Shown: positions 1,962 to 57,833 of the stretch, in pieces
Numbering within the stretch: position 1 is the first letter of the stretch
Layout of the letters: each line of letters opens with the position of its first letter
Assembly (NCBI GenBank): GCA_964016885.1
Contig: OZ024749.1
Coordinates: 43,648,001-43,712,000, forward strand
Reading direction: 5' to 3'
DNA from: Eledone cirrhosa
Lineage: Eukaryota
Length of the DNA: 64,000 bases
Translations under genes and position numbers: made by a program
Notes under the pieces: model-generated
What the model was told of the DNA's origin: nothing
Seen by the model: the letters and a program-made list of their open reading frames with translations, nothing else
Databases searched by the model: none

Positions 1962-2262
1962 ATTAAAATAACAGATTAAAGTTTAAGCAAAGAATCGCTT
2001 CTTTCACCTTTAACGGAATCTTCTGAAATAATAGACAATATATATAGTAATAATAATAAATGTGAAGACTAAAATCCAAAGAGGGCTCGATAAGGATAAA
2101 TATATATCAAATATATAAGAACCCTAGAGCAAATATTTATTAAAATAACAGATTAAAGTTTAAGCAAAGAATCATTGCTTTCACCCTTAACGGGATCTTC
2201 TGAGTTTCAGAAGATCCCGTTAAGGGTGAAAGCAGCGATTCTTTGCTTAAACTTTAATCTGT

Positions 2263-2464: not shown

Positions 2465-2530
2465 TATTTTATCTGATGAAAGCGCACCATAATTTACTTT
2501 GGTCGCCCTTGAAATATATATAATAAAATA
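2465..2530 (+). ncRNA. Minimal type I hammerhead ribozyme motif (family A)
   Basis: TATTTTAT-CTGATGA-AAGCGCACCA..TGGTCGCCCTT-GAAA-TATATA-TA-ATAAAATA: stem I is a perfect 8 bp, the core is intact and stem III is palindromic. Confidence 0.8.
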
Positions 2531-2605
2531 ATTATGGTTTTATAAATATAGTTTCCATTTATATATATTGTATATATATATATCCAAATATATATATATA
2601 TATAT

Positions 2606-5765: not shown

Positions 5766-5851
5766 CATTTAATCACGACACATGTTTCAATAAGAGATAG
5801 ATCGATTGTGAAGCCATGATCGATTATCACTGATCTCATCAGGGGAAAATG
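5766..5851 (-). ncRNA. Hammerhead-like motif in left arm of palindrome
   Basis: Reverse complement reads CATTTTCCC-CTGATGA-GATC...TTATT-GAAA-CATGTG-TC-GTGATTAAATG; stem I is imperfect. Confidence 0.5.
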
Positions 5852-5940: not shown

Positions 5941-6026
5941 CATTTTCACCTGATGAGATCAGTGATAATCGGTCATGGCTTCACAATCGATCTATCTCTT
6001 ATTGAAACATGTGTCGTGATAAAATG
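5941..6026 (+). ncRNA. Type I hammerhead-like motif in right arm of palindrome
   Basis: CATTTTCAC-CTGATGA-(47 nt)-GAAA-CATGTG-TC-GTGATAAAATG, with a GUC cleavage triplet. Stem I pairs with a bulge; the base of stem II is weak. Confidence 0.6.
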
Positions 6027-12920: not shown

Positions 12921-13183
12921 AAGTTTTATTTAAATTGTTGGGTTACAACGAGTAAATATTTATAACTGATATAAAAGCACTCAACAAGTATTTGGAGTAT
13001 ATTTACGATATTAAATAAATGGAAACTATATTTATAGAACCATATTTATCTATCTATTTATAAGACTGTTTATATTGTATTTTGTCTGAAGAAGGCATAA
13101 CATATTTTTAATATGATATCCCTGAAATATATATAATGAAATAAATATGGTTTTATAAATATAGTTTCCATTTATTTAATATC

Positions 13184-45194: not shown

Positions 45195-45255
45195 CACTTT
45201 ATTATACGTATTTCAAGGGTACTAATATTTAAGTACGCTTTCGTCAGATAAAATA
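45195..45255 (-). ncRNA. Minimal type I hammerhead ribozyme motif (family A)
   Basis: Reverse complement: TATTTTAT-CTGACGA-AAGCGTACT.TAAATATT.AGTACCCTT-GAAA-TACGTA-TA-ATAAAGTG. Confidence 0.8.
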
Positions 45256-45376
45256 TAATATTTGGTGTTAAGATAGTGACATATCATCATGTGAAATTAT
45301 GGTATAAGTTCAATGAAGATATATATATATATATATATAATAAAGATGAAATAAAAATGGTTATAATAGTTCCATA

Positions 45377-45446
45377 TATTTTATTATACGTATTTCGAAT
45401 ACAAAATCATCCTGCGACAGATGTTGTGTTCTCTTCAGATAAAAAA
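45377..45446 (-). ncRNA. Minimal type I hammerhead ribozyme motif (family A)
   Basis: Reverse complement: TTTTTTAT-CTGAAGA-GAACACAACATC..GATGATTTTGTATTC-GAAA-TACGTA-TA-ATAAAATA. Confidence 0.8.
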
Positions 45447-57732: not shown

Positions 57733-57803
57733 TATTTTATCTGATGAAAACGCAGATATCATCCCATGATGATATTTGTTTTTGAAATGCGCATAGTAAA
57801 ATA
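57733..57803 (+). ncRNA. Minimal type I hammerhead ribozyme motif (family A), best-formed copy
   Basis: TATTTTAT-CTGATGA-AAACGCAGATATCATC.CCAT.GATGATATTTGTTTTT-GAAA-TGCGCA-TA-GTAAAATA; 15 of 16 stem II positions pair, counting G-U. Confidence 0.85.
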
Positions 57804-57833
57804 CTTGGAACTCTTTTAACCATCTTTTGATCT

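Follow-up and report, generated by a model that had tools for sequence, protein, structure and literature searches.

Why would a ribozyme keep one unpaired nucleotide inside a helix that is otherwise maintained by compensatory change? This question was raised by a 64,000-nucleotide stretch of the Eledone cirrhosa genome (contig OZ024749.1; hereafter the window), in which five hammerhead motifs of one family, family A, carry a mismatched C at the fourth pair of stem II counted from the core. An earlier sequence-only reading of the window had proposed that this C marks a hammerhead subtype, and that it serves as a tertiary contact or a protein-binding determinant. The five motifs and their mismatches were found where and as that reading had described them, and its pattern of three pairs, a mismatched C and renewed pairing was borne out in all five rows. 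The C and the base facing it are designated 10.4 and 11.4, respectively, and the coordinates are listed in Table 1.

Table 1. Hammerhead features in the window (positions are those of the window)
Feature	Position	Strand	Bases at 10.4/11.4 or remark
Family A type I hammerhead (AAG subfamily)	2465..2530	+	C2483 opposite C2507
Stem I of the 2465 copy	2465-2472/2523-2530	+	
Core of the 2465 copy	2473-2479 and 2511-2514	+	
Stem II of the 2465 copy	2480-2510	+	
Self-complementary stem III of the 2465 copy	2514-2521	+	predicted cut after 2522
C10.4, conserved unpaired C of the 2465 copy	2483	+	
C11.4, base facing C10.4 in the 2465 copy	2507	+	
3′ end of 5′-truncated Hydra-clade element, into (TA)n target	2531..2562	+	
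Family A hammerhead (AGG subfamily)	13078..13143	+	C13096/C13120
Family A hammerhead (AAG-GTAC subfamily)	45195..45255	-	C45237/C45218
Family A hammerhead (GAA subfamily)	45377..45446	-	C45428/A45400
Family A hammerhead (AAA subfamily)	57733..57803	+	C57751/U57780
Family E hammerhead, ORF-linked Hydra family, different stems	5942..6023	+	C10.4 (5960) opposite U (6000)
Family E hammerhead, inverted mate of the 5942 copy	5769..5850	-	C5832/U5792

All five family A motifs follow the order stem I, CUGANGA, stem II, GAAA, stem III, H17, stem I, and have the core (CUGANGA...GAAA...UH), the three stems and the open stem I of a type I hammerhead. In the five-row alignment, stem II pairs 1, 2, 3, 5 and 6 were formed in 5/5 rows with two-sided changes at each, while pair 4 was formed in 0/5. 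The covariation score of this alignment was 0.514, a value reached by none of 500 shuffles, and slid controls gave 0.12-0.27; the position-4 mismatch pattern is not a product of chance. Across the subfamilies the base facing C10.4 is C, U or rarely A, and it is G in 0.35% of copies. When each copy was folded alone (ViennaRNA), C10.4 was unpaired with a probability of 0.88-1.0 in four copies; in the 2465 copy, stem II preferred a slipped register that pairs C10.4 (probability unpaired 0.12). Stem III is an 8-nt self-complementary sequence in all five motifs, covaries among subfamilies and gives self-duplexes of -3.2 to -10.5 kcal/mol; this is the short self-complementary stem III of dimer-acting (double) hammerheads, and cleavage as a dimer is here a prediction. 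Rfam at its gathering threshold gave no match of any family within the window, and the best 150 of 671 matches in an E-value search of the window were all microsatellite-driven miRNA matches.

Several other arrangements were observed around these motifs. The two hammerheads at 45195-45446 (-), which come from two subfamilies, form a tandem with a spacing of about 190 nt and share an identical palindromic stem III, and a single transcript of them could fold as a mixed double hammerhead. At 2531-2560, 13144-13175 and 57804-57830 the family A hammerhead is followed by an inverted repeat, ATGG...CCAT, whose interior is roughly inverted between the AAA/GAA and the AAG/AGG subfamilies. Immediately upstream of the 13078 hammerhead lies a short inverted piece of its own element's 3′ end.

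The 3.0-Gb genome was then searched with a family A pattern that left stem II free; the assembly searches covered this one genome and, in it, families with a pyrimidine at stem I position 2.1. The results showed that C occupied 10.4 in 82,250 of 85,643 copies, another base being present in the other 3,393. Where A follows, so that no CpG is formed, C10.4 was lost in 631 of 46,128 copies (1.4%), and in the rest the loss was 7%, chiefly C-to-T in CpG. Loss of the catalytic C3 amounted to 1,589 of 83,839 copies (1.9%) and was scattered, the C10.4-loss and C3-loss subsets possibly differing in age. A G faced C10.4 in 290 of the 82,250 copies, and 100 listed copies of this kind were spread over all subfamilies. 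The expectation that the C and its non-pairing would be conserved in larger alignments thus held. In inverted pairs with one non-C10.4 copy, the mate retained C in 13/14, which indicates that non-C copies mostly arose by decay after insertion; the family A source elements are thus fixed for C10.4, most departures from it being of later date. A non-C base was shared by both mates in 1/14 (7 such pairs among the 100 listed) and a G opposite C10.4 in 3/8; as counts bearing on the transposition of C10.4 mutants (1/14, 3/8 and 0/6), these are small samples. Judged from inverted pairs that share the change, a C10.4 mutant may have been copied once, with gene conversion as the alternative. Young, ORF-intact element copies are present in the genome, and contigs from sequencing runs yielded nothing beyond subfamily variation. 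Among the sequencing runs listed as containing the sequence none was an RNA run, a result that argues neither for nor against expression.

A structure scan of genomic DNA revealed further families with the same position-4 defect. The C.Y mismatch marks four families besides A, with different stems I and II, and the hammerhead population carrying it comes to about 100,000 copies in one genome. Family B gave 11,373 matches, and of the 100 listed 99 have C10.4 (by eye); family C gave 6,033 (96 of 100 listed); the D set, with many subfamilies, gave 4,385 (98 of 100 listed); and family E, which has C.U, dominates 2,442 matches against 549 control matches. Clusters were built from 321 distinct copies, with the two test columns ignored and the central matches of biased searches omitted. 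C10.4 was found in 23/23 multi-copy clusters (21 singletons, which include unrelated families and decayed copies, being excluded from these counts), and its partner was C in 20, U in 2 and G in 1, the single G-partner cluster including mates of matches from the G search. Pairs 10.2, 10.3, 10.5 and 10.6 were formed in 22-23 of the 23 clusters with 2-4 pair types each, and pair 1 was often G.U or U.U, with G-C in 4/23. At the level of copies, pair 4 was formed in 15/321 versus 279-312 of 321 for pairs 2, 3, 5, 6 and 7. At a looser clustering threshold C10.4 was the majority base in 15/17 clusters, and the remaining two were small and mixed rather than C.Y families that had lost the C. Stem II of the C.Y copies spans 20-47 nt, so the distance from C10.4 to its partner varies, which points to a constraint on RNA structure and not to a DNA motif.

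Hammerheads of other kinds were also recorded, and more than 15 distinct families occur in about 1 Mb of this genome's DNA. Three single copies of other long-stem families (L107, L068 and L295) have U.C at stem II position 4, which their relatives do not keep consistently. One minimal-type hammerhead with an extra base (L299) lies 3′ of a Neptune-like endonuclease ORF. An old, dispersed family (L380-L408) has a canonical-looking type I hammerhead with a 6-bp stem I plus internal loop, a 4-bp stem II ending in C10.4-G11.4 (sometimes C.A), a loop of the form C...A and a similar 8-nt stem III; a Hydra ORF was looked for nearby and none was found, and this family may be a retrozyme-like element or the ancestral state.

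To which element do these hammerheads belong? They sit at the 3′ end of Hydra-clade Penelope-like elements (PLEs), and the window copies are 5′-truncated 3′ ends. Between paired hammerheads lie ORFs of up to about 800 aa encoding a reverse transcriptase (RT) and a C-terminal endonuclease, and those at three loci (L096, L105 and L183) contain RLRW/RMRW, DKT, CNCRxxxxCPL (CxCx5C), CxLC (CxxC) and CxH. Both the order and the motifs are those described for the Hydra clade, which has a single ORF with RT followed by a C-terminal GIY-YIG-like endonuclease, RWK-like, DKT and CxCx5C motifs, and CxxC and CxH close to the end (PMC8557442). A Pfam search of the element ORF gave no match, and its nearest named protein relative is an octopod protein with 42% identity. 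Insertion at (TA)n, partial tandems (pLTR) and inverted 5′-truncated copies were also found, as in this clade. With an ORF of about 2.4 kb and a 3′ UTR of 0.9-1.7 kb, the elements are longer than the Hydra-clade elements of Craig et al. (2021), for which a length of <3 kb is given as a tendency and not as a strict criterion (PMC8557442). The hammerhead lies 0.9-1.7 kb downstream of the ORF end, 240-295 nt upstream of the next ORF start in tandems, and some 50-100 nt short of the (TA)n target (in family A a median of 52 nt separates the predicted cut from (TA)n). At this place it is non-coding, so a coding constraint on C10.4 was rejected. A splice-acceptor reading was likewise discarded because an AG before the C is not common to all subfamilies, as was a non-LTR retrozyme, because the window copies are dispersed truncated 3′ ends between microsatellites and not tandem repeats of about 170-400 nt that each contain a hammerhead.

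An ORF was tied to the hammerhead without a (TA)n break in families A, B and E only. ORFs considered as partners of families C and D are separated from the hammerheads by (TA)n breaks; these links were dropped, and no linked ORF was found for either family. Short conserved 5′-leader blocks, with a TACTCC-like start and GCTCC...GTTGAGC, were noticed between the pLTR end and the ORF start in A, B and E despite saturated flanks (L101, L105, L106, L088, L183, L085 and L434).

The linked proteins of A-AAA, A-AAG/AGG, B and E are 47-59% identical to each other, and the 200 nt upstream of the A, B and E hammerheads align at 0.47-0.60 versus shuffled means of 0.50-0.56. ORF-linked A, B and E formed one clade (SH-like 99) in two quick trees, which were made without bootstrap and the second of which omits two long-branch rows and one short row. 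In their sister, the next lineage whose hammerhead could be linked, position 4 is a C-G pair. Among 78 metagenome Hydra-type loci, 42 yielded 44 distinct hammerheads; position 4 was paired in 41/44, tiny loops occupying it in the other three, and in the long-stem ones it was paired in 22/22. C-G was the commonest position-4 pair there (17/44), and the published Hydra hammerhead rows (File S2 of PMC8557442, by eye) showed the mismatch in 0/26 and C-G in 16/26. Since the mismatch is present in the A, B and E clade and position 4 is paired in the sister lineage and in 41/44 metagenome hammerheads, the mismatch is, by sequence comparison, a selected and clade-specific feature of one Hydra subclade. 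The suggestion that the C and its non-pairing define a subtype of PLE hammerheads is therefore upheld far beyond the five copies. The simplest history would be a single C-G to C.Y change, which likely was retained while all its surroundings turned over; with the mismatch arising once, its phylogenetically independent support is confined to its survival, within one genome, over about 2 substitutions per protein site. Because C10.4 is also the commonest base in the outgroups, where it pairs with G, the preference for C appears in part older than the mismatch. In viral contigs there were 79 pattern matches, of which 1 was weakly structured, and these were taken as chance.

Another abundant Hydra lineage is also represented, at 2203-2253 (+) of the window and at locus L188. 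In 32 of 34 distinct copies the core of its hammerhead reads CAGAAGA, a U4A change; stem II is 4 bp long and has C-G as its fourth pair, and stem III is a longer hairpin. The linked ORF is 41-44% identical to those of families A, B and E.

Comparison with known hammerheads places the variant more precisely. Like the Hydra-clade PLE hammerheads of Craig et al. (2021), those described here are type I, lie near the 3′ end, accompany (TA)n targets, have no extra base before 10.1 and often U.U or G.U at pair 1, and combine a short palindromic stem III with a protein bearing RW, DKT and CxCx5C motifs; they differ in being unpaired at position 4 with a helix beyond it, a state seen by eye in 0/26 of the published rows (PMC8557442). 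With the minimal PLE hammerheads of Cervera and de la Pena (2014) they share a dimer-type architecture, a long helix II, massive genomic dispersal and an expectation of low or assisted activity (PMC4209133). In minimal PLE hammerheads, however, an additional base precedes G10.1-C11.1 and helix III is very short or absent (PMC4209133), and the label "minimal" given to the window motifs had to be dropped: there is no extra base before 10.1, pair 1 is rarely G-C, stem III is 8 nt long, and the extra-base register, when tried, gave worse pairing in the window sequences. Canonical type I hammerheads of Schistosoma and retrozymes share the core, and position 4 ends their helix II, but they depend on a helix I of 6 bp and a helix II of 4 bp, with a 3′ A that ends loop 2 and pairs with a U of loop 1 (PMC2632901, PMC7229834), whereas the defect here is 1x1 with C or U as the 3′ base and a stem I of 4-8 bp; the motifs thus lack the features of canonical loop-loop type I hammerheads (PMC4209133, PMC2632901). 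Irregular second helices are on record elsewhere: a bulge in mid helix II of D. virilis Penelope (PMC4209133), the S. purpuratus 1 row of Fig. S3, in which position 4 is C.A and on which no comment is seen in the available text of that source (PMC4209133), a bulged A in chrysovirus hammerhead helix II in print, and an internal loop 2 in CChMVd (-) (PMC2632901).

What, then, does the unpaired C do? Four readings were weighed, and we rank recognition by a protein first, followed by an RNA tertiary contact, a hinge or brake, and lastly an inherited relic or DNA-level signal.

The sequence-only reading had tied a tertiary contact to a conserved stem I. Its observation of stem I conservation stands inside family A, where the 8-bp stem I is nearly constant even across lineages with saturated flanks, and fails elsewhere: the C.Y families B, C, D and E have stem I sequences different from that of family A, with only 4-5 contiguous pairs. 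The mismatch occurs with unrelated stems I of 4, 5 and 8 bp, so a fixed contact between stems I and II is weakened and the link to a conserved stem I was not sustained. A protein-binding determinant would fit better. A contact of C10.4 with stem I or a partner ribozyme, through which the C would flip out or dock in place of the canonical hammerhead loop-loop contact and give an active fold at low Mg2+, is possible but rather unlikely. In its favor, the canonical 4-bp helix II gives way to loop 2 at position 4 (PMC4209133), CChMVd (-) makes the contact with an internal loop of its domain II, and Schistosoma has a loop 2 closed by a C:A opposition (PMC2632901); besides the constancy of stem I in family A, its first three pairs are Y-R, R-Y and Y-R in 23/23 clusters, a regularity partly imposed by the search patterns. 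A search with a pyrimidine at 2.2 gave 139 matches and no high-copy long-stem family. Against such a contact, neither a conserved G/U partner nor a base covarying with C10.4 was seen in stem I or the flanks of the C.Y families, the known loop-loop motif requires a 3′ A (PMC2632901) while C.A occurs in 6/321 copies, and altered relative stem lengths break such contacts in tested hammerheads (PMC3088659).

Somewhat less probable is a hinge or brake, in which the mismatch would divide the long stem II, leaving a weak base of 3 bp and a helix distal to it, so that the helix bends clear of stem I or cleavage stays slow until the RNA dimerises. The three core-proximal pairs are indeed predicted to form weakly (0.06-0.85 in the five copies), stem II of the 2465 copy can shift its register, and both the weak pair 1 and the U.C oppositions in single copies of other families agree with it. 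A hinge, however, needs no C on the 5′ side, yet C is there in every cluster, and the long-stem outgroup hammerheads do without a break at position 4. Improbable is a functionless relic, or a C kept by some signal in the DNA, for instance a promoter element of the pseudo-LTR, a reading which a single origin, the non-independence of the copies, the derivation of all C.Y families from one genome and the promoter signals that a pLTR can contain (PMC6765202) would allow, but which is opposed by compensated change at all neighbouring stem positions amid saturated flanking DNA, by the restoration of pairing in no amplified subfamily though single G repairs arise, and by the second base, which a DNA motif would leave unconstrained 12-39 nt away.

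Recognition by a protein is the reading that we favor, tentatively and by analogy: C10.4 may be a base-specific handle on stem II for the element's own RT-endonuclease. A 5′ base that is always C, facing a 3′ base that is free but never G, suggests that the C itself is read and that the helix is not merely broken, and a protein partner would account for both the clade restriction and the indifference to stem I. Families C and D keep C.C, as expected if the protein is borrowed. The model for such dependence is PAc, the anole Poseidon element of Frangieh et al. (2024), a PLE whose hammerhead likewise lies near the start of reverse transcription and cleaves only when the element's protein is added, with a minimal template that includes stem II (PMC11167929). 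PAc belongs to a different clade, and its hammerhead overlaps the ORF start, whereas here the ORF begins 240-295 nt downstream; its binding site is mapped to 172 nt, with no nucleotide determinant mapped in the available text, and its cleavage is not required for insertion in vitro (PMC11167929). Counting against the handle, the U.C copies of other families hint at a geometric role.

In the course of events that we envisage, two hammerhead copies on a tandem transcript (pLTR-ORF-pLTR) would be joined by their 8-nt palindromes into a double hammerhead. Replacement of C-G by C.Y, likely a single event, would have exposed the Watson-Crick edge of the C where the canonical 4-bp stem II stops. There the RT-endonuclease would bind, choosing the RNA to be reverse-transcribed and aiding stem II, with its weak base of three pairs, in reaching the cleaving fold. 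A more doubtful proposal than the handle itself is that the hammerhead of this clade became a ribonucleoprotein switch: by reading the unpaired C, the clade's RT-endonuclease would license cleavage and would also choose which RNAs, autonomous or non-autonomous, are copied.

The mismatch is genuine, selected and clade-defining; both the ribozyme of which it marks a variant and the transposon clade are known. In the literature searched, which left Lunse et al. (2017), Martick and Scott (2006) and one supplementary file of PMC4209133 outside, a conserved C.Y at 10.4-11.4 was not found described; the alignments of Lunse et al. may already show the variant. Why PLEs carry hammerheads is stated to be unresolved (PMC8557442), and the low activity of their hammerheads has been attributed to unknown helper factors (PMC4209133). 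Descriptors that require an unbroken helix II, and Rfam at the gathering score, can miss a population of about 100,000 hammerheads in one animal genome. A non-core nucleotide held as tightly as a catalytic residue offers a precise mutation for separating cleavage, protein binding and transposition, and, if it is indeed read by protein, no protein determinant would have been mapped before this C on a natural hammerhead of a retroelement.
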